From the NCBI GenBank assembly GCA_964503595.1, contig CAZDAM010000002.1:9335-73334 (forward strand): a stretch of DNA of 64,000 nucleotides, in the 5' to 3' direction. The notes beneath the pieces are model-generated. The model was not told the origin of the DNA. It saw only the letters and a program-made list of their open reading frames with translations, and ran no database searches. The stretch is from an uncultured bacterium (GTDB taxonomy: Bacteria; Muiribacteriota; UBA6191). Positions within the stretch are counted from its first letter, which is position 1, and every line of letters starts with the position of its first letter. Of the stretch, positions 6,354-53,776 are shown piece after piece. The position numbers were made by a program, and so were the translations under genes.

Positions 6354-6608
6354 ATGGCTATTGTCAGCGCATCCGAATTTCAGAAGAACTTTGGGCATTT
6401 TAAGGAATTGGCTCAGAGAGAACCCATTTGCATCACCAGCAATGGCCGGGAAAGTGTCGTACTGCTTTCAGCTGCTGAATACAAGGAATTTCAGGAATAT
6501 ATGAAATCCCGTTATGCCTATAATGGTAACGTCAACGATGCCTTCAAGTCCGATGTCGATGCGTTCATGAACACGCATGGCGAAGTACTTGACGAGCTCG
6601 CTAAATGA
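6354..6608 (+). CDS. phd: Phd/YefM-family antitoxin
   Basis: 84 aa; N-terminus MAIVSASEFQKNFGHFKELA...EPICITSNGRESVVLLSAAEYKEF typical of Phd/YefM; 4-bp overlap (ATGA) with the downstream Doc toxin. Confidence 0.8.
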   Translation: MAIVSASEFQKNFGHFKELAQREPICITSNGRESVVLLSAAEYKEFQEYMKSRYAYNGNVNDAFKSDVDAFMNTHGEVLDELAK

Positions 6609-7003
6609 CCTCAGCTCCCGAACCTAAGTGGATTAGCAAAGCCCAGACGCTCTATATTCATGAGCAGTCGATTGCACGGCATGGCGGCCGCTTAGGGACA
6701 CGCAATGAAGGGCTGCTTGAATCGGCTCTCGCCCGCGCCGAGAACTTCCATGCCTATGGGGAAACCGGTCTTTGCAAATTGGCAGCGGTTTATGCCGTGG
6801 GCATCGCCCGCAATCATACGTTCATTGATGGCAACAAGCGCACCGCCTATGCGGTGGCAGGTCTATTCTTGTATCTGAATGGGCTGTTGCTGACAATTCC
6901 AGAAGTGGCGGCACAAATCAAATTGTTTGAAGATGTCGCTTCCGGGAAAGTTCCGGCGGAAGAACTGTCGGAGTTCTACCGCAAGAACACCACACCGAGA
7001 TAG
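6605..7003 (+). CDS. doc: Doc (death-on-curing) Fic-fold toxin
   Basis: 132 aa; HTFIDGNKRTA matches the Fic/Doc motif HxFx(D/N)GNKR. Confidence 0.85.
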   Translation: MTSAPEPKWISKAQTLYIHEQSIARHGGRLGTRNEGLLESALARAENFHAYGETGLCKLAAVYAVGIARNHTFIDGNKRTAYAVAGLFLYLNGLLLTIPEVAAQIKLFEDVASGKVPAEELSEFYRKNTTPR

Positions 7004-19975: not shown

Positions 19976-21292
19976 ATGAATCGCATGATTGACAATCGCA
20001 AGCACAAAGCCCGGGCTATTCTGGTTGGAGTTCTTTTGAAAGACGACTCCATGGGCGAGCTGCAAAAAGATCTGGAAGAGCTGAGGAGGCTTCTGGACAC
20101 CCTTGGTGTAGAAGCTCACGCCACCATGATTCAAAGCCGCGAGACTATTGATTCGCGCACGTTCATCGGCTCCGGCAAGGTCGAGGAAATTAGAAATCGC
20201 CTGGGTCCGGAAGAGATCAGCGTAGTTGTCTTTGATGATGAACTTTCCCCTTCCCAGATGCGAAGCCTGGAACAGGATCTGAAGATTGAGGTTCTGGATC
20301 GCACCGGTGTGATTCTGAGAATTTTCAGCCAGAATGCCCGTACCTATGAATCCAAGCTTCAGATTGAACTGGCCGGACTGGAGTATGCCCTTCCCCGCCT
20401 GAAGCGTCAGTGGACTCACCTTTCCCGTCAGAGGGGGGGACGAGGATTTTTATCCGGAGAGGGAGAAACCCAGCTTGAAGCGGACCGCCGGGCAATTCGT
20501 ACCAGTATCCAGCAGACCAAGGCCAAACTGGAAAAGATTCAGTCACAGAGGGATTCCCAGAAAAAGAACCGCCGTCACTTTTTCAAGGTTGCCATTGCCG
20601 GTTACACCAACTCCGGGAAATCAACCCTGCTCAATGCCCTCACCCAATCCGAGGTTCTGGTGGAGGACAAGCTTTTTGCCACGCTGGATCCATCAACCAG
20701 AATCATCAAACCAGATGAAAAACCGGCTATTCTGTTCTCTGATACAGTGGGCTTTATCAAGAAACTGCCCCATGCCCTTGTGGCTTCCTTTCGCTCCACA
20801 TTTGAGGAAATCCGCGATGCCGATCTGATTCTTCATGTCGTGGACTGTTCCGATCCTGATTATACTCATAGAATCCATGATACCGTGAAGGTTCTGAAAG
20901 AACTGGATCTGGATTCCATTCCTCGCCTGATGGTCTTCAATAAAATCGATCGCATGAAGCGTCAGCCGATCAAGCTCAAGATGATCAAATCTGTACATTC
21001 CCAAGCTGCCTTTGTTTCTGCAATCAAAAGCGAAGGTCTGGAAGATCTGAAAAACAAGATCTACGCCAGCTTCAAGCGCCATATGCGGGAAATGCAGATT
21101 GAAGTCAGTTTTGGATGTGAGTCCATTCTGGAAAAAATCTATGAATGGGCCCGTGTCCTGCAAACCGAATACACCGAAGATTCCATTTCCATTCATTTCA
21201 GGGGAGCCCGCCGGGATCTTGAGCCGGTCCTCGATCAGCTCCGGCGGAATGGTTATCTTCTTACGGAAAAATCTTTGCAGGTAAGTTTATGA
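19976..21292 (+). CDS. hflX: GTPase HflX
   Basis: HflX N-domain, GYTNSGKSTLLNALT G1 motif, DTVGF G3, NKID G4; 438 aa. Confidence 0.9.
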   Translation: MNRMIDNRKHKARAILVGVLLKDDSMGELQKDLEELRRLLDTLGVEAHATMIQSRETIDSRTFIGSGKVEEIRNRLGPEEISVVVFDDELSPSQMRSLEQDLKIEVLDRTGVILRIFSQNARTYESKLQIELAGLEYALPRLKRQWTHLSRQRGGRGFLSGEGETQLEADRRAIRTSIQQTKAKLEKIQSQRDSQKKNRRHFFKVAIAGYTNSGKSTLLNALTQSEVLVEDKLFATLDPSTRIIKPDEKPAILFSDTVGFIKKLPHALVASFRSTFEEIRDADLILHVVDCSDPDYTHRIHDTVKVLKELDLDSIPRLMVFNKIDRMKRQPIKLKMIKSVHSQAAFVSAIKSEGLEDLKNKIYASFKRHMREMQIEVSFGCESILEKIYEWARVLQTEYTEDSISIHFRGARRDLEPVLDQLRRNGYLLTEKSLQVSL

Positions 21293-21534
21293 GTCTTCTG
21301 GAAAAAATAATTGCGTTCTTCGCACAGACCCTGTTGACCCTGGCTCTGGCTGCGGCTGTGGCCCATCGACTCGGCTATGATGTCATCAGCCTGGGACAAG
21401 GCAAAGTCGTCCTGAGACAGGAGCCCGAAAAAGAAATTCAGGATGATGGCAAAACCCCCATCCCGATTCAGGAAAACCCGCTTCAGGTTCCAACAAGCGC
21501 CGAGTCTTCCACCAGCACTTCAGCTTCAACATAA
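21289..21534 (+). CDS. Small hypothetical protein (81 aa) with N-terminal hydrophobic helix, translationally coupled to hflX
   Basis: ATGA overlap with the hflX stop; overlaps a minus-strand Cys-rich ORF, so only one of the two is likely real. Confidence 0.3.
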   Translation: MSLLEKIIAFFAQTLLTLALAAAVAHRLGYDVISLGQGKVVLRQEPEKEIQDDGKTPIPIQENPLQVPTSAESSTSTSAST

Positions 21535-21800
21535 TGGGCCAAAGTATTTCCGCAGCTCAGGCAGGAACGATATTCAACCCGGATCCAGGAATCATCCTCA
21601 AGTTCCTGAAAACCCAAGAAAGAAGTACCTTTCAGGAAAGCTTCCCGGCTCAGAAATTTAAGCTCACAACACCGACAGGTTTTATATCCTTTTGAATGCA
21701 TTCTGGATGCATCGGCATCTGGAACACAACAGATGAGACACTGCAGTTTTTTACGAAAGCTCTATCACAAAAGGTAGACAGAGCCCACCAGAAAAGTGAC

Positions 21801-22361
21801 TTAAATGTATTCCTGAAACAGTTCCGGCCTGGGGCTTGCAATCACTGTTCGGGCAACAACCATACCACGCTCACTGGCAGCTTCACAGGCAACATCGATC
21901 GAAGCCTTCACACTGGACAGATCGCCGGTAATCAGGAGAAAGCCCTTGCCGCCGACAGCCATGGCCAGGTGAACCCGAAAAACCTGCCCATCCGAAGTTT
22001 TGGCTGCAGCATCCGCCGCTTCCACAATGGATGCCACGGAAAAGGTCTCGAGAATTCCCAAGGCCCCGACCTGTTCCGGTTCGAGATGAATCGAGCCTCC
22101 AATGGCACGGAATACATCCGGATGAAGATTGGGAATAATGAGCTCTTCAATCAGAACCCCCCGAGCTGCTGCTGCTCCGGCCTGAACCGCAGCCTCAACT
22201 TCTGAGACCTGTCCTCCAACCACTACCATATATTTCCCCGAACAGATGGAACGGGCCACCATCAGTTCAACATCGGCCGCCTTGAGCATGGAGTCCTGAG
22301 CAGCGTAGCCAATCGCAATGGATGAGAGTTCGATCATTCCAATGGCATCATGATTCTTCAT
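21801..22361 (-). CDS. pduT: Bacterial microcompartment shell protein, tandem-BMC-domain PduT-like (Fe-S pore type)
   Basis: 186 aa; near-colinear with Salmonella PduT as recalled: AIGMIELSSIAIGYAAQDSMLKAADVELMVARSICSGKYMVVVGG vs [45 protein letters not shown], including the pore Cys; second BMC repeat present. Confidence 0.85.
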   Translation of the reverse strand: MKNHDAIGMIELSSIAIGYAAQDSMLKAADVELMVARSICSGKYMVVVGGQVSEVEAAVQAGAAAARGVLIEELIIPNLHPDVFRAIGGSIHLEPEQVGALGILETFSVASIVEAADAAAKTSDGQVFRVHLAMAVGGKGFLLITGDLSSVKASIDVACEAASERGMVVARTVIASPRPELFQEYI

Positions 22362-23663
22362 CTAGCGTTCCTCAACGATTACGGCATCCCCCACCGAAGT
22401 TACCACACCGGAAATGGATGCATGGATCCAGGCACCCAGCCCTTCAGGGCGACCAATCGGATCCCCGGCCTCAACCTTCTGCCCCACCTTGACCAAAGCC
22501 ACTGCCGGAGCTCCGACATGCTGGTTCAAAGGAATTGTCACGAGTTCTCCTCCGACAATCCCGGCTTTCAGGGGTGCTTCATTTCTGTACTGATCAATAT
22601 TGAGTTTTTTCATCAGCTTGGGGATCGGAGCCTTTCGAAAAGGTGCCATCGGGTGAGCTTTCACACTGCCTGGCTCAAATTTCATGCGCTCGGCCTTATC
22701 TTTGACCTGCATCATACGCTTGAAGTTCGTAGAAATATTCTTGGGATCCAGATCTTCCGGACAGGCATAGAAACTGCACAGATTGCACTCGCAGCAGAAC
22801 TCCGCCCCCTTGACCAGATCCAGAGGCGTCGTCCAAAACCCCATGCTGCGCATGTTTTTATGTGGCTCAATCGGATGACCCAGCAGATAACGGGGGCAGA
22901 GCTCAGTGCAGAAATTGCACTGATCGCAACTGGCCTTGGCTATTTTATCGTACTCCTTGCGGGGCCTGACATGCCGGCGAATCAGATCGTGATTGCGGGG
23001 AAAGACCAGAATCCCTCCCATGGTTTTGGTCACCGGGGTCTCGAAATTCTCCGAGACGCTTCCCATCATGACTCCGCCCAGCAACAGAACCGGGTCCTCA
23101 CAGGTAACCCCACCAGCAGCATCGATACACTCCCTCACAGTTGCTCCGACCTTGACTTCCAGAGAACAGGGCTCAACAACAGCTCCACCCACCGACAGCC
23201 AGGACGTGATCACGGGACGGGAACGGGCTACATTCAGAAGAGTTTCCACATTGGTAACTATACAACCAACAGAAAGCGGAATATTCCCGGGAGCTACGGT
23301 CCGGCCCGTGGCTTCCCAAACCAGAACCAGCTCATCCCCTGCCGGATAGTAATTCCCCATTTTCAGAAATTCCATACCCTCCAGAAGATGAGGTTCAAGG
23401 GCTTCAAACACAGATTTGTATTTGGCCTTGATCCCAAAGATTCCCCGCGTGGCCCCACTCAGATCCATGATCTGCCTCAAAGCCTGGATCACCTCTTTGG
23501 GGTAAGCCTTGAGAATTTCCTTGTCCTTATGCAGAAGTGGCTCACACTCGGCGGCATTGACAATTACGGTATCGGCCTTGGCGTTGTATTTGACATGGGC
23601 CGGAAACCCGGCACCGCCGGCACCGACAACACCCCAGTTTTCAATATTTTTCACAAGCGACAT
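22362..23663 (-). CDS. pduS: PduS-like RnfC-family flavin/Fe-S oxidoreductase (cobalamin-reductase-like)
   Basis: 433 aa; N-terminal NADH-binding GVVGAGGAGFPAHVKY (Complex1_51K-like), two 4Fe-4S motifs (CDQCNFCTELCP, CCECNLCSFYACP), C-terminal RnfC_N-like barrel (LVKVGQKVEAGDPIG...IHASISGVVTSV); this domain order is that of PduS; abuts pduT with 0-bp spacing. Confidence 0.75.
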   Translation of the reverse strand: MSLVKNIENWGVVGAGGAGFPAHVKYNAKADTVIVNAAECEPLLHKDKEILKAYPKEVIQALRQIMDLSGATRGIFGIKAKYKSVFEALEPHLLEGMEFLKMGNYYPAGDELVLVWEATGRTVAPGNIPLSVGCIVTNVETLLNVARSRPVITSWLSVGGAVVEPCSLEVKVGATVRECIDAAGGVTCEDPVLLLGGVMMGSVSENFETPVTKTMGGILVFPRNHDLIRRHVRPRKEYDKIAKASCDQCNFCTELCPRYLLGHPIEPHKNMRSMGFWTTPLDLVKGAEFCCECNLCSFYACPEDLDPKNISTNFKRMMQVKDKAERMKFEPGSVKAHPMAPFRKAPIPKLMKKLNIDQYRNEAPLKAGIVGGELVTIPLNQHVGAPAVALVKVGQKVEAGDPIGRPEGLGAWIHASISGVVTSVGDAVIVEER

Positions 23664-23694
23664 GCAAGCATTCTGACCCAGAGAGCCGGCAAAA

Positions 23695-24396
23695 TCAACG
23701 CAGGAAGAAAAGGATCCTGCGTTCGATCGAAGAATCTCCCAGCCTCAAAGTGCTGGTTTCTTCGTAAAATTTCCTCAGACCGGCAATCTGAGCTTTGCGG
23801 GAAGCCTCCAGAAGCTCCTCATCACTCATTCCCGGTCCTTTGGTCAGGACAATACCCTTTGAAACAGTAGGAGCCAGAATTCCCACCAGTTCGCCAGCCT
23901 GGGCTACAGCCCTGGCAACACTGACGTCTACCCTGCCATAGGCACGGGCAAACTTCTGGGCATCCCTGGTTTTCCAGTTGGCATGAAAAGCCCGTCCGCG
24001 AACAGAAAGCTCCTGCATCACCCGATTGACAAAATCAACCTTCTTATTGCGGGCATCCACCCCAAAAAGCTTCAGTTCAGGATATCCAAGAGCAATCGGA
24101 ATTCCCGGAAAACCGCCGCCACAGCCAAAATCAAGCATACTGGAAATTTTTCTTGGGCCGAAATACGCACGCATCACCCGAAAAATCAGCCAGGAATCCA
24201 TATAGTGTTTCAGCACCGCATCCTCTAAAGAAATAATCCGAGTCAGGTTGTGGCGGGTGTTCTCATCTACCAGAAGGGCGTGAAATTTCTGCCAGAGGGG
24301 CAGGATCCGAGCCGATGGATCGCCGCCTTCCTCAAGCCATTCTCCTGCCTGGGACCAGATCTTTGTACTCTCGCATGGGTTGCCAGTTTCATTCAT
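23695..24396 (-). CDS. rsmG: 16S rRNA (guanine527-N7)-methyltransferase RsmG (GidB)
   Basis: SAM-binding motif LDFGCGGGFPGIPIAL and conserved RsmG core; true start may be an internal Met. Confidence 0.8.
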   Translation of the reverse strand: MNETGNPCESTKIWSQAGEWLEEGGDPSARILPLWQKFHALLVDENTRHNLTRIISLEDAVLKHYMDSWLIFRVMRAYFGPRKISSMLDFGCGGGFPGIPIALGYPELKLFGVDARNKKVDFVNRVMQELSVRGRAFHANWKTRDAQKFARAYGRVDVSVARAVAQAGELVGILAPTVSKGIVLTKGPGMSDEELLEASRKAQIAGLRKFYEETSTLRLGDSSIERRILFFLR

Positions 24397-24450: not shown

Positions 24451-24771
24451 ATGGCCTTTTACAATGACGGACAGCTAGGCAACTGGGTTGCATATCTGCA
24501 CGCTGACGGAAGTCTGGCCGTCTGTGTTCAGCTTCACCAGAATGGCCAGGAACATCGCCAGGGACGTGTCTCCACCCGCGGTTTTACCTCTCCTGAAGAA
24601 GCCTACATATACCTGAACCGCGATTTGAACATGAGTGCGGAAAAGATCCGGTTTTATGTTGCCAGTCCCGAGCAGTTCTACCTGACAGCCTGTCTGGCCG
24701 GACCTCATCTTCCTCTGCATCCCCATCAGATCTTGAGAGGACTAAGCCCAATCAGCTTCGTTCCTTTCTGA
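24451..24771 (+). CDS. Small hypothetical ORF (106 aa); C-terminus runs into a perfect hairpin
   Basis: ORF only; no motif; last ~10 codons are encoded by the stem-loop at 24741-24787, so it may be spurious. Confidence 0.2.
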   Translation: MAFYNDGQLGNWVAYLHADGSLAVCVQLHQNGQEHRQGRVSTRGFTSPEEAYIYLNRDLNMSAEKIRFYVASPEQFYLTACLAGPHLPLHPHQILRGLSPISFVPF

Positions 24772-24787: not shown

Positions 24788-24791
24788 TGAG

Positions 24792-24862
24792 AGCGGGTGA
24801 ACAGAATCGAACTGTCGTAGCCAGCTTGGAAGGCTGGTGCTTTACCACTAAGCTACACCCGC
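24792..24862 (-). tRNA. tRNA-Gly (anticodon UCC)
   Basis: Minus-strand cloverleaf folded by hand: acceptor GCGGGTG/CACCCGC, anticodon stem CCAGC/GCTGG with loop CUUCCAA, T-loop TTCGATT; 71 nt, no encoded CCA. Confidence 0.7.
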
Positions 24863-24877
24863 AGTCTGCCCTATGAA

Positions 24878-24952
24878 TCGGACATGCAGGATTCGAACCT
24901 GCGACCCCCTGTTCCCAAAACAGGTACGCTAGCCAGGCTGCGCTAATGTCCG
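24878..24952 (-). tRNA. tRNA-Pro (anticodon UGG)
   Basis: Minus-strand cloverleaf: acceptor CGGACAT/ATGTCCG, anticodon stem CCTGT/ACAGG with loop UUUGGGA, T-arm GCAGG-TTCGAAT-CCTGC; 75 nt. Confidence 0.75.
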
Positions 24953-25008
24953 ATGTCTTAGGACAGCCGCAGTTATATCATGAGCAGGATCAACGGTCAA
25001 GAAAGTTT

Positions 25009-38260: not shown

Positions 38261-39970
38261 TCAGTAATGCATCAGGGACTGTACCCCGTAATCTTTCAGG
38301 CGCTCACGACCTTCCAGAAAATCGAGCTCAATCAGAAACATCATTCCGGCCACCTTGCCCCCGGACTTTTCAATCAGAAAAGCCGTTGCCTCTGCTGTGC
38401 CTCCGGTTGCCAGAACATCATCAATGACCAGAACGGACTGGCTCTTGACGATTCCTTCCTGAATCTCAAGCGTAGCTTCTCCGTACTCAAGAGCATAGGA
38501 ACGGCTTAGAACCGGTCCTGGCAACTTCCCGGCCTTGCGAATGGGAACAAACCCAACCCTGAGGGCCTGGGCCAAAGCCGCCCCCAGAATAAACCCGCGG
38601 GATTCCACTCCGGCAATCAGATCAACCTGGCGGTCCTTGATCAGCCCCTGAAAAAGCCGGATGACATCAGAAAGACCATTGGGAGCCGCCAGTAAAGGAG
38701 CGATATCCTTGAAAACCACCCCGGGTTTCGGAAAATCCGGAACATCCCTCACGAGTTCCTTCAGACGCCCGAGGGCGGTGCGAACCCGTTTGGACTGCAA
38801 ATCGGTAAAGACCTTGCGGGTAAAATCCTGAACCCACTCTTCACTGATCTGCTCTTTCTGCTGCTTGATTTCCCCAATCCGGCTTAAAGCCACCATGGCG
38901 TTTTTCTTGACGTATTCCGAGGAATCCCGCAAAGCATCCACCAGATCCAGAGTGGAATCCTCAACACCGATTTCTCCAAGTGCCTGGGCTGCTGAAGCCC
39001 TGACCGACCAGAAGGAATCATGCTTGAGAATATGGGTGATCTGATCGAGCATTTCCTTGGCCTGCAAGTCCCCCAGAACCTTCACTGCCCAGTAGCGGAT
39101 ATCCGTATTTTTACTTTTTAAGGCACGCGAGAGTTTTTCAATACAGGAATCCCCAAGTTCCCACAGGGTTTCAGCCGCCTGCTTCCTGACAAACCAGTTG
39201 GCATCCCCAAGCATCTGAATCAGAGGATCAATGATTTCCGGGGTATCCATGGAGCGCATGCCCTGAATGATGGATTGCTTCTGATCTACCGGAAGCTCCT
39301 CATCCATGAGCTTCACCACCAAAGCCTTGCAGGCCTTGCTGCCACCGACTTCACTTAGAACCTGGATGGCCCAGAACTCCCGATCATGATGCCCGCAGTT
39401 CAAAACTCCAATTACTTCATCCACGCAAAGCTGCCCAAGCTGAATCAGACCGCTGGCAGCAGATTTTCGAATTGTCCACTGAGTGTCATCCAGACAGTGA
39501 ATCAATGGCTTGACAGCTTCCCGGACCCCGGTTCTTCCCAAGGCCGAAATCGCACAGAGCTTCGCCGGGAGTTCCTCCCCTTCAATCAGAGAAACCAGGG
39601 TTTCTACCGAGCGGCTCCCGAACTGGGAAATCACTTCGCTGATCCAGAACTGAATATCGTCATCATTGCTGCGGGCCATATCCAGAAGAGTATCCAGATA
39701 ATGGCTGCCCAATCCGGCAAGGACTCTGGCCGCATTGCGCCTGACACCCCAGGAGGAATGCTTCAGGGCTCCAATCAGATGGGGAAGAGCACGCTCTCCA
39801 TATCCTTCCAGCACCTTGACTGCTTCCTGGGAAACCGCTTCATTATCATCGCCTAACGCTTCGATCAGAAGCGAGATTGATTCAGCTCCCGGTTTATCCT
39901 TGAGCGATGCCACGGTTTCACGGCGCACCCGGTAATCCACATCCTGTAAAGCTTCCAGAATTGCTTTCAT
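38261..39970 (-). CDS. apt: Fusion protein: N-terminal PBS-lyase HEAT repeats (~390 aa) + C-terminal adenine phosphoribosyltransferase
   Basis: C-terminal 170 aa match APRT (FKDIAPLLAAPNGL, VDLIAGVESRGFILGAALA, PRPP motif VLVIDDVLATGGTAEA); N-terminal RRETVASLKD, WGVRRNAARVLAGLG etc. are HEAT repeats; start ATG overlaps the dnaN stop (ATGA). Confidence 0.8.
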   Translation of the reverse strand: MKAILEALQDVDYRVRRETVASLKDKPGAESISLLIEALGDDNEAVSQEAVKVLEGYGERALPHLIGALKHSSWGVRRNAARVLAGLGSHYLDTLLDMARSNDDDIQFWISEVISQFGSRSVETLVSLIEGEELPAKLCAISALGRTGVREAVKPLIHCLDDTQWTIRKSAASGLIQLGQLCVDEVIGVLNCGHHDREFWAIQVLSEVGGSKACKALVVKLMDEELPVDQKQSIIQGMRSMDTPEIIDPLIQMLGDANWFVRKQAAETLWELGDSCIEKLSRALKSKNTDIRYWAVKVLGDLQAKEMLDQITHILKHDSFWSVRASAAQALGEIGVEDSTLDLVDALRDSSEYVKKNAMVALSRIGEIKQQKEQISEEWVQDFTRKVFTDLQSKRVRTALGRLKELVRDVPDFPKPGVVFKDIAPLLAAPNGLSDVIRLFQGLIKDRQVDLIAGVESRGFILGAALAQALRVGFVPIRKAGKLPGPVLSRSYALEYGEATLEIQEGIVKSQSVLVIDDVLATGGTAEATAFLIEKSGGKVAGMMFLIELDFLEGRERLKDYGVQSLMHY

Positions 39971-43567: not shown

Positions 43568-43882
43568 CTAAACTAGCTTCTCATCAATAACGTTTTGTAT
43601 AAGCCTTGCTGCATGGAAAATGGTTACGATTTCTATGCTGTCCTCTCTGACTCGATAGACTATGCGGTAAGACTTGTGAATCCTCTCTCTTAAGTCTTCC
43701 CGTCCGTATTCAGGAACGATACGCCCAGAGCTTGGAAATGGTGCCGCCTTCTCAATCAAAAAGATTACCTTTTCGGCTGTGACTTTAGCGTAATAAGCAG
43801 AACGATTTGCGATGTATTCGCAAACTCTCTCTAGATCACCAGCAGCTTTTTCAGACCAGACTACCCTTAGCTTTCGAGCCAT
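43568..43882 (-). CDS. RelE/ParE-family type II toxin
   Basis: 104 aa; ...RIVYRVREDSIEIVTIFHAARL typical RelE/ParE C-terminal beta-strand motif; overlaps the upstream small antitoxin gene by 16 nt. Confidence 0.7.
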   Translation of the reverse strand: MARKLRVVWSEKAAGDLERVCEYIANRSAYYAKVTAEKVIFLIEKAAPFPSSGRIVPEYGREDLRERIHKSYRIVYRVREDSIEIVTIFHAARLIQNVIDEKLV

Positions 43883-50220: not shown

Positions 50221-51031
50221 TCAGGTACTCCAGGCAGGGAGATTTTTCAAGAAACCCGGCCTTCAGAAGTTCCCGGGCAAAAACGGCCAGTCCCAGCCAG
50301 TCTCTGGCTTCCGGAAAATAGTGCAGTTTGCGACCGAGAAAATCGACAAAATCCCGGTAACTCAGATGTCGCGAATCCTTTTCCCAAAGTTCCTTGAGAT
50401 GCATCTGACCCCAGGCTGCCGAGGATGTCAGTGCACTCAGAGCTTTCAGGATTTCCTGTGGGAATTTCTGGTAGGAGTCCTTACGAATCACCCATAGGGC
50501 AAAGACAAAGGGGAGTCCGGTTACAGATTTCCAAAGAGTCGCCAGGTCATGACAGATCACCTGCTCCTCCCCAAGCATGGTCTGGGCATGATCCCCGATC
50601 AAAACTGCGCCGTCATAAGAGGAAAAAATCTGGCTTACGGTCTCGGTCTGCAAATCCTCTTGCTCCTGATAGATAAACTCTGTATCCACACCAAGATGGG
50701 ACAAAAGAAGCTGGGCCAGATGAATCGATGTTTCACTGGCTCCACTGAGAAGAATCCGGCCGCCTGAAATCTCTGAAAGCCGTTTTTTCGTGACCAGAAA
50801 GACCGAACCGGCTTCTTCTCTGGCCGCGATCAGAAGATGGGGCCAGATGAGATACTGATCAGAGTTTCTTAAGGCCTCAAAGGAGGAAACTGCCGAGATA
50901 TCAAGTTCACCGCCAGCAATCGCCCGGTTCAGCCGCGAGGGGACTTCAAACACCAGCAAAGCATTTTCCGGGTGAAAACGGGCATTGGGCACAACGCCAT
51001 TGGTAAACGGAAGCATTCCGATTCTAAGCAT
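50213..51031 (-). CDS. mqnA: MqnA/MqnD-family menaquinone (futalosine pathway) biosynthesis protein
   Basis: MLRIGMLPFTNGVVPNARF...GGELDISAVSSFEAL pattern of MqnA-like periplasmic-binding-fold enzymes. Confidence 0.55.
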   Translation of the reverse strand: MLRIGMLPFTNGVVPNARFHPENALLVFEVPSRLNRAIAGGELDISAVSSFEALRNSDQYLIWPHLLIAAREEAGSVFLVTKKRLSEISGGRILLSGASETSIHLAQLLLSHLGVDTEFIYQEQEDLQTETVSQIFSSYDGAVLIGDHAQTMLGEEQVICHDLATLWKSVTGLPFVFALWVIRKDSYQKFPQEILKALSALTSSAAWGQMHLKELWEKDSRHLSYRDFVDFLGRKLHYFPEARDWLGLAVFARELLKAGFLEKSPCLEYLNV

Positions 51032-51091
51032 AAGGGAATTCTACCACGCCCCAATTCCGACCCGGTGTATTCATGGTGTATCCTTGCCCTC

Positions 51092-53776
51092 ATGAACAAT
51101 TTAGACAAACTCCTGCAAAAACCTCCCCAGGAAATCGTGAGCCAGATCCTGAACGCTCTGGTTCAGGCCGAATGGAATGAAAGACGCCAGACCGCCCTGA
51201 GTCTGGCCCAGATGGGGCCTGAAGGCCTGGATATACTGATGCAGGCTACCGAGAATGCCAAAGAAACCGAACTGGTTCAAACTGGCTGCTTCTGGGCAGA
51301 TTTTGTCTTCTTTCAGCTCAAAAGCGGCCAGGAGGTCTGTAGCCTGCGGCGTATCTACGAAGCCTCGGATGCCAGCATCCGCAAACGGACTCTTGAACGT
51401 CTGATCGATGCCCCGATTCTCTCCGAATCCCAGCCTTTCCTGTATCTAGCTCTGGGGGATGAATCCTGGGATGTGCGGGAACGGGCCTGCCAGGGATTCC
51501 TGAAACTGGGCCGGGAAGTCGTCCCCTTTCTGGAAGAGCGCTTTCAGCACGGAAACTCCCATCAGCGATACTGGACTTTCCGCATTCTCGCCCGCCTGCT
51601 GGGCCCGGAAGCCATCAAGAGCTTTTCCAACTTCTTCAAACTGGATCCAAAAAACGAGGAACTGCAGATTTTTGCCGTCTCCAATCTGGGAGAAATCGAT
51701 GAGCCCCGGATTGTCCGCACCCTGCTCAATTTTTTGCGGACAGAATCCTTTTTCATCCATGAAGAAGTTCACCGAAGCCTGAAAAAACTGGTCCGCACCC
51801 AGTTTGAGGAAATGATTCAGATTCTGGAACAGGAACCGGATGTGCGTACTGCCGAGACTCTCTTCAGGGTTCTGGAATCCGCTCTGAATGACACCATTCT
51901 GGAGCGGGCAAAGACTCTGCTTCAGAGTGAACACTATCCAACCCGCTATATGGCTATCTCCCATCTTGGAACCTACCCCTCCCAGCTCTGTGCCCGCCTC
52001 CTTCTGAAATGCTTTGAAGACCCCAAATGGGGCCTGAGACGCCAGGCCATGGAGAAGCTCTGCCAACTGGGCACCTATGCCATCCCCGCTCTTCTGGAAG
52101 GACTGGAAAGCAAAAGCGGCAATCAGATTTTCTGGTCTTTGAAAAGCCTCATCCAGCTTCGTGAGCCTTCCACCCTTCCGGCAATTGCATCCATCCTGAG
52201 GGAAAGCCCCAGTAAGGAGCACCGCATGATGGCTCTGGAAGCCGCTGCCATCCTTCAAAGTGAGGATTCGCCGGAAGTTCTGCTGGAAGCTTTTGACAAT
52301 TCCATGTGGGAAGTCCGCCAGAAAGCCAGCGAACTTCTGCCCCTCCAGAAATTCCATCCTCTGGTTTCTCTTCTGTCCGGGGCAATCAGTGACAGCAACA
52401 ATATCCGCTTCTGGTCATTGCGAACCCTCGAAAGCATCGGGGCCAAAGGGGCCGAGTCCCTGCTGCATCAAATCCAGACCCAGACCGACAACAACCCCTG
52501 GAACTGCATCCGCCAGCTAAGACTGGCCAATCAGGGAGTCCTGAAGCGAGAACTGGAAAAAAGTCACCCGATTCTTTCCCAGATTGAACTGACCATCCAT
52601 GATGATAAAGCCTCTGCCCCCGCATCTGGTGGACCTCAGCAGATCGTCATTCAGCAGGCTTTGGGAATGGAAAGTCTGTATCACGTCAAACTTCCCGAAG
52701 CTGAAGGCCTGAACGCCTATCCCATCTCCGTCGATGAGATGTTTGAACAGGCCTGCAATCTTTCCGCTTCTGACATCCACCTCAAAATCAGCCATCCTCC
52801 AATCCTCAGGGTTCAGAACAAACTGATCACCATGCGCCACCCTGCCCTGAGTACGGGAAACCTGGTTCTGATTGTGCGTCAGCTTCTCTCTCAGCAACTG
52901 GTCCGCTACCTGGAAACCAATCACCAGGTGGACAGCTCCTACGAGTCCGACAAAGGCCGCCGTCTGCGCCTCAATATCTTCAAAACCCGCCTGGGCTATG
53001 AAATTGCCGGGCGTTTCATTACTGAAAAACTGCCTACGTTTGAATCCCTGAACCTGCCTGTGAACATCATGCAGAAACTGGCCAACATGGAAACAGGACT
53101 GGTCATTCTGACCGGCCCGACCGGTTCCGGCAAGACTTCCACGCTCGCCGCCATGATTCACTACATCAACCTGCTCTATCACAAGCACATCATCTGCATT
53201 GAAGATCCGATTGAGTACATCCATAACTCCAAGCTTTCCTATATTTCACAAAGGGAGATTCTAAGAGATGTTCCTTCCTTCCCCATGGGAATCCGGGCAA
53301 CTCTTCGCGAGGATCCCGATGTGATTCTGGTCGGAGAGCTTCGCGATCAGCAAAGCGTGGAAACAGCCATGACCCTGGCCGGTACCGGTCACCTGGTTCT
53401 GACAACCCTGCATGCGCCGACTTCCACAACCGCCGTCGAACAGCTGATGGACTTTTTTGCCGAGGAACAGCAGGCCCATATCCGAAAGCAGGTTGCCTTC
53501 AACTTGAGAGCCATCATTTCCCAAAGGCTTCTGAGGCATAAAAACGGGAAGGAACGGGTCCCTGCCTGTGAAGTTCTGATTGCAACCCCTGCCGTCAAAA
53601 ACATCATCCGGGATGGAAAAACCGAGCAGCTTCAGACCATGATTGAAACAAGCAAGAAAGAGGGCATGATTGCCCTGGATCAGTCCCTGAAGAACCTTCT
53701 TGATATGGGCAGAGTCACCTTCGAAGAAGCCTGGCCCCACGTCATTGATCAGAAGACATTTCGCGGGGGGAATTAA
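51092..53776 (+). CDS. pilT: Fusion protein: N-terminal ~520-aa HEAT/PBS-lyase repeat region + C-terminal PilT-type type IV pilus retraction ATPase
   Basis: C-terminus GLVILTGPTGSGKTSTLAAMI (Walker A), DVILVGELRD (Walker B/Asp box), His-box TTLHAPTSTTAVEQL, and the PilT-characteristic AIISQRLL; N-terminal repeats (DVRERACQGFLKLG, GLRRQAMEKLCQLG, WEVRQKASELL) are HEAT-like; start placed at ATG 51092, divergent from mqnA. Confidence 0.8.
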   Translation: MNNLDKLLQKPPQEIVSQILNALVQAEWNERRQTALSLAQMGPEGLDILMQATENAKETELVQTGCFWADFVFFQLKSGQEVCSLRRIYEASDASIRKRTLERLIDAPILSESQPFLYLALGDESWDVRERACQGFLKLGREVVPFLEERFQHGNSHQRYWTFRILARLLGPEAIKSFSNFFKLDPKNEELQIFAVSNLGEIDEPRIVRTLLNFLRTESFFIHEEVHRSLKKLVRTQFEEMIQILEQEPDVRTAETLFRVLESALNDTILERAKTLLQSEHYPTRYMAISHLGTYPSQLCARLLLKCFEDPKWGLRRQAMEKLCQLGTYAIPALLEGLESKSGNQIFWSLKSLIQLREPSTLPAIASILRESPSKEHRMMALEAAAILQSEDSPEVLLEAFDNSMWEVRQKASELLPLQKFHPLVSLLSGAISDSNNIRFWSLRTLESIGAKGAESLLHQIQTQTDNNPWNCIRQLRLANQGVLKRELEKSHPILSQIELTIHDDKASAPASGGPQQIVIQQALGMESLYHVKLPEAEGLNAYPISVDEMFEQACNLSASDIHLKISHPPILRVQNKLITMRHPALSTGNLVLIVRQLLSQQLVRYLETNHQVDSSYESDKGRRLRLNIFKTRLGYEIAGRFITEKLPTFESLNLPVNIMQKLANMETGLVILTGPTGSGKTSTLAAMIHYINLLYHKHIICIEDPIEYIHNSKLSYISQREILRDVPSFPMGIRATLREDPDVILVGELRDQQSVETAMTLAGTGHLVLTTLHAPTSTTAVEQLMDFFAEEQQAHIRKQVAFNLRAIISQRLLRHKNGKERVPACEVLIATPAVKNIIRDGKTEQLQTMIETSKKEGMIALDQSLKNLLDMGRVTFEEAWPHVIDQKTFRGGN

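Follow-up and report, generated by a model that had tools for sequence, protein, structure and literature searches.

A pduS-pduT pair behind rsmG is probably a satellite module of a microcompartment encoded elsewhere in the genome

Introduction

The 64,000-nucleotide stretch analyzed here (the window, part of contig CAZDAM010000002.1) carries homologs of pduS and pduT directly behind rsmG, away from any other bacterial microcompartment (BMC) gene. This raises the question of whether the two genes are an outpost of a microcompartment whose remaining genes lie elsewhere in the genome, a redox pair that works without a shell, or the remnant of a lost locus.

Satellite loci were defined by Axen et al. 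(2014, PMC4207490), who also proposed PduS/PduT as a trans-shell electron route. In that work and in Sutter et al. (2021, PMC8217296), a satellite locus has an incomplete shell gene complement, lies distant from the other shell genes and implies at least one main locus with BMC-H and BMC-P genes in the same genome. PduS/PduT pairs are known as satellites in the ACI, FRAG, PVM and SPU7 microcompartments (PMC8217296), and Supplementary Data 2 of that survey lists satellite positions of the pair for ACI and for 24 of the 57 loci of FRAG1, a type without defined locus organization. The pair has since been characterized biochemically and renamed MNdh/BMC-T^SE (Sutter, Kerfeld and co-workers, PNAS 2024, PMC11626177). 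Reduction is driven by NADH and proceeds via FMN and three 4Fe-4S clusters, the electrons of luminal NADH cross the shell, and NAD+ is recycled. The same study found the two genes adjacent in 97% of 2,172 loci, counted 361 BMCs that carry PduS/T and lack an alcohol dehydrogenase, and located the module in satellites more often than in main loci for PVM (18 of 20) and ACI (5 of 7) (PMC11626177).

The 186-aa protein is a PduT homolog with a variant pore motif

The original prediction took the 186-aa open reading frame for PduT, with two BMC domains and a pore cysteine, and the profile searches confirmed this assignment. Pfam BMC matched the protein in two stretches with 139 bits (cut-off 24.5), the solved PduT structures 3PAC, 3NWG and 3N79 were matched with E ~1e-42, and residues 5-184 are colinear with 3PAC and 3N79. 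The best NCBIfam match was eut_PduT (TIGR02526), end to end, but its 125 bits fall short of the equivalog cut-off of 250 bits; the training set of this model is made up of Eut/Pdu enterobacterial-type proteins. The window protein is a member of the divergent "T_pdut darkBlue" clade of the BMC-T tree of Sutter et al., where many members are labeled "(sat)" (PVM, FRAG6, FRAG8, MIC4, GRM3C) (PMC8217296).

The pore cysteine, Cys40, lies in SICSGK and aligns with the cysteine of TICPGK in the solved proteins; this cysteine, R37 and K43 are unchanged in all 120 homologs compared. The two edge motifs D23/K27 and D117/K121 are present and equally invariant in this set. Motifs of the D-x-x-x-K type at the edges of BMC-H and BMC-T proteins serve to tile them into the shell facet. 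The published pore motif of PduT is CP(G/S)K (PMC11626177), whereas 168 of 169 clade members among the matches listed have CSGK, isolated and in-locus members alike. CSGK is thus a clade-wide variant of the pore motif. By analogy with the characterized homologs, the window PduT would bind a 4Fe-4S cluster.

The 433-aa protein has the permuted domain order of PduS

The abutting gene upstream encodes a 433-aa protein for which the PduS domain order had been predicted. Pfam returned that order: Complex1_51K (residues 7-146), SLBB, Fer4_17 (245-306) and a C-terminal RnfC_N (374-430). Alignment with RnfC (7ZC6 chain C) was obtained in two blocks, PduS 359-427 matching RnfC 18-86 and PduS 4-302 matching RnfC 124-415, and on this alignment PduS is a circular permutation of RnfC. 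The two proteins share an FMN/NADH domain, SLBB, two 4Fe-4S clusters and the barrel domain; the window PduS differs in being permuted, in standing without membrane Rnf partners and in its score with the NCBIfam model rnfC (TIGR01945), 203 bits, which is under the cut-off of 246.

The nucleotide/flavin (FMN/NADH) motifs of the protein are GAGGAGFPAHVK and NAAECEP. Its two 4Fe-4S motifs, C246DQCNFCTELCP and C290CECNLCSFYACP, have the spacing CxxCxxCxxxCP plus CxxCxxCxxxxCP seen in 131 of 133 PduS relatives. The role of electron conduit across the shell, which had been proposed for the pair, is the right one as judged from the published homologs (PMC11626177), and by the same analogy electrons may flow through the window PduS and PduT.

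The pair follows rsmG, probably in one transcription unit

The features of the region are collected in Table 1. In the direction of minus-strand transcription they run tRNA-Pro, tRNA-Gly, a 106-aa open reading frame, rsmG, pduS and pduT, the conserved but divergent 106-aa frame lying between the tRNA genes and rsmG. The pair does stand directly behind rsmG and co-oriented with it, 31 bp away, as originally described; the pduS stop codon is followed by the ATG of pduT with zero gap. The accompanying statement that the pair lies upstream of the two tRNA genes was the wrong way round, the tRNA genes being upstream of rsmG and the pair downstream of them.

Pattern matching gave no promoter candidate in the 31 bp that separate rsmG from pduS. 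The hairpin with T-run past pduT is the probable end of an rsmG-pduS-pduT unit, and pduS and pduT are probably co-transcribed with rsmG. Two small open reading frames past pduT (21483-21701, minus strand, and 21289-21534, plus strand) were considered as parts of the module and rejected, having no Pfam match and unconvincing conservation outside the species.

Table 1. Features of the rsmG-pduS-pduT region (window coordinates)
Feature	Position	Strand	Basis and remarks
Terminator-like hairpin + T-run	21773..21789	-	11 nt past pduT stop; consensus scan, pattern match only
pduT homolog (BMC-T^SE)	21801..22361	-	186 aa; tandem BMC-domain shell tile, pore Cys40, two D-x-x-x-K edge motifs
pduS homolog (MNdh, metabolosome NADH dehydrogenase)	22362..23663	-	433 aa; Pfam domains, permuted RnfC alignment, motifs
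rsmG (gidB)	23695..24396	-	Pfam GidB, 78.5 bits; probable first gene of unit
tRNA-Gly(TCC) + tRNA-Pro(TGG)	24791..24953	-	ARAGORN; upstream of rsmG, outside module

No other microcompartment gene lies nearby

The claim that the 64 kb hold no further BMC gene was borne out by three kinds of search. Phmmer, run on six-frame open reading frames of the window with seeds for BMC-H, three BMC-P, AldDh, PduL-type PTAC and class II aldolase, found only pduS-pduT. Profile HMMs of BMC-H and BMC-P, used with --max on every frame of the window, found no further shell gene, and Pfam scans of the likely-gene open reading frames (nearly all those of at least 100 aa) returned nothing else related to BMCs. Other genes recognized by Pfam encode FeoAB, Fic, FliD, Maf, HflX, a metallophosphoesterase, FliW, CsrA, FliG, DnaN, an HtrA-type protease, an MqnA-like protein, a T2SS ATPase, an RND efflux pump and CarA. 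The window is an ordinary chromosomal neighborhood.

The sequence was extended by 10 kb on the left and by 5 kb on the right, where the contig ends, for a total of 79 kb of the 106.8-kb contig. No shell gene, AldDh or PTAC was found in either extension. Over about 31.7 kb on its downstream, left-hand side and about 45 kb to the right, towards rsmG, PduT is the sole shell gene. A lone pfam02502 gene was seen about 31 kb from the pair, beside upp and metK and without shell genes; it looks like a housekeeping gene.

Isolated pairs are the rule among relatives

The nearest PduT homologs, at 77-86% identity, come from Candidatus Cloacimonadota MAGs (PCJ19062.1, MCO4782597.1 and MBW7876575.1), the closest relatives, in which the GidB-PduS-PduT block recurs, and from unclassified "bacterium" MAGs; scans of genomes and metagenomes added two loci at 77-78% identity (L007 and L089) among the matches listed. 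The rsmG-pduS-pduT block is kept in the relatives L001, L087, L088, L169 and L170, and also in L002, where a ferritin gene is inserted between GidB and PduS. L002 (GCA_023954715.1) and L087 (Tully MAG SAMN07571236) share with the window the longer order CsrA-FliW-Reg_prop-Metallophos-...-GidB-PduS-PduT, and L169 and L170 (GCA_002422125.1) retain the 106-aa frame-GidB-PduS-PduT while the neighboring block is rearranged. Elsewhere in the clade the surroundings of the pair are unrelated to these, with TerB and Pyr_redox genes or with TonB-ExbBD. No other BMC gene was found within 10 kb of the pair in these contexts or in L002, L087, L169 and L170.

The wider comparison covered at least 168 PduT-relative loci drawn from species-representative genomes, metagenomes and contig look-ups. 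PduS adjoins PduT in 153 of the 168 among the matches listed. Where at least 8 kb of flank was available on both sides, 49 of 54 loci had no other shell gene and 50 of 54 had PduS adjacent, again among the matches listed. The members that do lie within a locus belong to complete PVM-like loci (for example L006, L055, L148, L159 and L166) with class II aldolase, three BMC-P, AldDh, BMC-H and PTAC, so the clade works in real shells.

An isolated PduS-PduT pair is therefore the rule in its clade, and satellite pairs are a published configuration. The framing of the pair as a surprising orphan was not supported. The comparison of neighborhoods in related genomes that was to put it to the test shows isolation to be common and not unusual.

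Across the same genome pairs, identity is 77-85% for PduT, 60-69% for PduS and 33-39% for the adjacent RsmG. Synonymous sites are saturated when the window is compared with its syntenic relatives, and the dN/dS of PduT is 0.064. The pair is under strong purifying selection.

The pair is probably a satellite of a dispersed microcompartment

We consider it probable, at roughly 0.8, that the pair forms a satellite module of the MNdh/BMC-T^SE kind and that the rest of the microcompartment lies elsewhere in the genome, most likely as a dispersed metabolosome of the SPU7 type. Both the existence and the type of the main locus are what we infer from the pair and its relatives. The original prediction offered a shell-independent redox module, a satellite of a distant BMC locus and an uncharacterized minimal system; of these three, the evidence supports the satellite.

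SPU7 is a dispersed type known from Ca. Cloacimonetes, Riflebacteria and Wallbacteria, with a main locus of AldDh, PduL-type PTAC, pfam02502, BMC-H and BMC-P, satellites with a pfam01791 aldolase and two BMC-P, and no alcohol dehydrogenase in its loci (PMC8217296). The lack of an alcohol dehydrogenase fits a dependence on PduS/PduT. According to the text of Sutter et al. the SPU7 PduS/T pair is usually found in the main locus; their BMC-T tree, however, carries the entry "Ca. Cloacimonetes (COB02) SPU7 (sat) 185 aa T_pdut", and the BMC-P of COB02 is filed as "SPU7 (main)" in the BMC-P tree (PMC8217296). The homolog PCJ19062.1 (P0007, 185 aa), from a Tully 2018 MAG, is located in an rsmG-pduS-pduT block. 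It is very probably COB02_08405 (UniProt A0A2A5AIB7), an identity suggested by its phylum and length, by the series of its accession and by the Tully-2018 label of its sample. The window pair probably belongs to SPU7 too, an assignment that rests on taxonomy and on this catalog entry.

In the mechanism that we propose, PduT would form a pseudohexameric trimer tiled into the shell by its two D-x-x-x-K edge motifs, as the published homologs and the conserved residues suggest. One 4Fe-4S cluster would sit in the central pore, with Cys40 of each chain as ligand, and PduS would be docked on the luminal face of PduT. NADH from an encapsulated aldehyde dehydrogenase would be oxidized by PduS and the electrons exported across the shell, so that NAD+ could be regenerated without alcohol dehydrogenase.

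Several observations count against the satellite reading. The 79 kb covered hold no main BMC locus, the pair is detached here and not in a main locus as is usual for SPU7, and a search with a PduL bait gave no Cloacimonadota-labeled match among its top 120. Linkage to rsmG without a nearby regulator is also unexpected for a gene of a substrate-induced organelle.

Alternative readings

It is unlikely, in our view, that the pair is a true orphan in a shell-less lineage, where PduS and PduT would act together as an NADH-dependent Fe-S redox pair, free or in sheets, and the PduT trimer would be a ferredoxin-like partner instead of a shell tile. The absence of any other shell gene across 79 kb of contig would agree with this explanation, as would a single bait search with the PduL (PTAC) of a Sumerlaeota locus (L023), which gave no Cloacimonadota-labeled match, and so no Cloacimonadota BMC enzyme, among its top 120. 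At least five relatives have kept the linkage to rsmG, with gaps down to 14-31 bp, which suggests constitutive expression; this tight, conserved linkage is the one feature that fits a true orphan better than a satellite. Against it, both D-x-x-x-K tiling motifs are invariant and the key sites of PduT are indistinguishable from those of clade members in full PVM-like loci. The contrast in identity between PduT and RsmG is typical of a shell tile with several partners. A Cloacimonetes MAG with a 185-aa PduT, moreover, is catalogued with an SPU7 main locus and BMC-P (PMC8217296), and MNdh is reported solely in BMC types that contain AldDh (PMC11626177). A stricter form, in which the lineage has neither BMC-H nor BMC-P and PduS-PduT, expressed constitutively along with rsmG, is an NADH-oxidizing Fe-S module without a shell, is slightly less likely again. 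If true, it would mean that a shell protein has been exapted to carry electrons in soluble form or in sheets.

The pair might instead be the remains of a microcompartment locus that has been lost, and be decaying or functionless. Its isolation from all other BMC genes would suit such a history, and PduS is seemingly split into two or more open reading frames in some relatives (L003, L035, L042 and L072, for example). These split cases are mostly found in polished long-read or nanopore-derived assemblies ("pilon" record names, MFD bins), pduS is intact in L004 and L005, which are sister contigs of a split case, and the splits are likely frameshift errors of assembly. In the window both reading frames are intact with all cofactor motifs present, and the conservation of PduT despite saturated synonymous sites, with its low dN/dS, speaks against decay. 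We regard an evolutionary remnant as very improbable.

Finally, the 433-aa protein might be taken for the usual RnfC subunit of an Rnf complex, with the BMC protein unrelated to it. This explanation has a negligible chance of being right and is refuted by domain order and gene context. Although the top NCBIfam and PDB matches of the protein are RnfC, it scores under the rnfC cut-off, has its RnfC_N barrel at the C-terminus and not at the N-terminus (the PduS/MNdh permutation), has no rnfD, G, E, A or B adjacent to it and belongs to a family whose genes mostly abut pduT in the related loci listed.

Comparison with known systems

The window pair resembles the MNdh/BMC-T^SE module (PMC11626177) in the adjacency of the genes, in the four permuted domains of MNdh, in the tandem-BMC partner with a pore cysteine and in its satellite position. 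It differs in having CSGK instead of CP(G/S)K in the pore and in being joined to an rsmG transcription unit, and it is known from sequence. It shares the phylum with SPU7 of Ca. Cloacimonetes, a dispersed type with several satellites to which the 185-aa COB02 PduT is assigned as "SPU7 (sat)"; the difference is that the genes of the SPU7 main locus and of its aldolase and BMC-P satellites are absent from the 79 kb covered, save for the housekeeping-like pfam02502 gene.

The Pdu system of Salmonella and Citrobacter is alike in fold and cofactor sites, as the matches to 3N79 and 3PAC and the aligned cysteine (C38 in Salmonella) indicate. PduS of that system was first assigned to cobalamin reduction. 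The Pdu genes, however, lie inside an operon of about 20 genes, whereas the window pair stands by itself, with no B12-dependent enzyme near it.

Implications

The correct label for the locus is MNdh/BMC-T^SE satellite module, and beyond annotation this has little importance; the case would be interesting solely if the genome proved to be shell-less. Two small additions to what is published can be made. A large clade has CSGK and not CP(G/S)K in the pore, and several deeply divergent members of the Cloacimonadota have the module joined to rsmG, a hint that its expression is constitutive and not induced by a substrate. The locus also marks its source, a marine MAG of the Cloacimonadota, as likely to carry a microcompartment, and the probable catabolism of such a microcompartment would be that of a sugar-phosphate or nucleotide-derived aldehyde.

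Genomic context of pduS and pduT

Physical clustering of pduS and pduT with the housekeeping gene rsmG is kept among Cloacimonadota genomes in which RsmG identity is only 33-39%, and the rsmG-pduS-pduT block persists where the adjacent block is rearranged. Gaps within the block are 14-31 bp in the window and in the related locus L169 (~90 bp in L087), which suggests co-transcription of pduS and pduT with rsmG. An ORF of 106 aa, divergent from rsmG, gave no match in a Pfam search and was found at the equivalent position in three related loci, L001, L169 and L170 (E 5e-37).

Conserved motifs of the two proteins

In PduS, the final Cys of the second Fe-S motif is preceded by a spacer of four residues (CxxCxxCxxxxCP), whereas RnfC reads CxxCxxCxxxCP. 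As the PduS form was present in 131 of 133 PduS relatives, the longer spacer is a trait of the PduS family. At the pore of PduT, C-S-G-K was found in all but one sequence of the clade (168/169). A CP(G/S)K motif has been stated to be universally conserved beside MNdh (PNAS 2024, PMC11626177); the PduT clade retains the Cys, Gly and Lys of that motif, but the Pro is absent.

Positions of the features discussed (L-numbers, related loci; L177 and L176, left and right extensions of the window's contig)
Feature	Location	Strand	Remark
rsmG-pduS-pduT block	window 21801-24396; L087 6001-8684; L169 872-3511; L170 1029-3668; L002 7115-10558
106-aa ORF	window 24451-24771	+	divergent from rsmG
PduS second Fe-S motif	window 22779-22817		residues 290-302
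PduT pore motif C-S-G-K	window 22236-22247		residues 40-43; also L007-L168
PduL-AckA-PduS-PduT order	L023 812-4970		Sumerlaeota MAG
pfam02502 RpiB/LacAB gene	L177 745-1212		155 aa; ~9.2 kb left of window start, same contig
BrxL-type ATPase, DUF1016 and BrxB genes	L176 16189-18793		immediately beyond the window's right edge; contig end
HEAT-repeat fusion protein	window 38261-39970	-	large
HEAT-repeat fusion protein	window 50972-53776	+	large
ParE-family toxin	window 43568-43882	-	toxin-antitoxin element
Fic/DOC protein	window 6605-7003	+	toxin-antitoxin element

Other genes on the contig and a second type of satellite

The pfam02502 family serves as an SPU main-locus enzyme. The member on this contig is probably a housekeeping gene, because it adjoins upp and metK, no shell gene lies nearby and it lacks an obvious extension. 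The BrxL, DUF1016 and BrxB genes constitute an incomplete phage defence system of the BREX type. The architectures of the two HEAT-repeat fusions are unusual, one carrying a phosphoribosyltransferase domain and the other a T2SS/T4P ATPase (T2SSE) domain. In the gene caller's annotation of L177, a PhdYeFM antitoxin gene precedes the Fic/DOC gene.

In the Sumerlaeota locus, genes for a PduL-type PTAC and acetate kinase precede the PduS-PduT pair, and the 15-kb piece contains no shell gene. This locus is another kind of satellite, one that carries the ATP-yielding end of the pathway.
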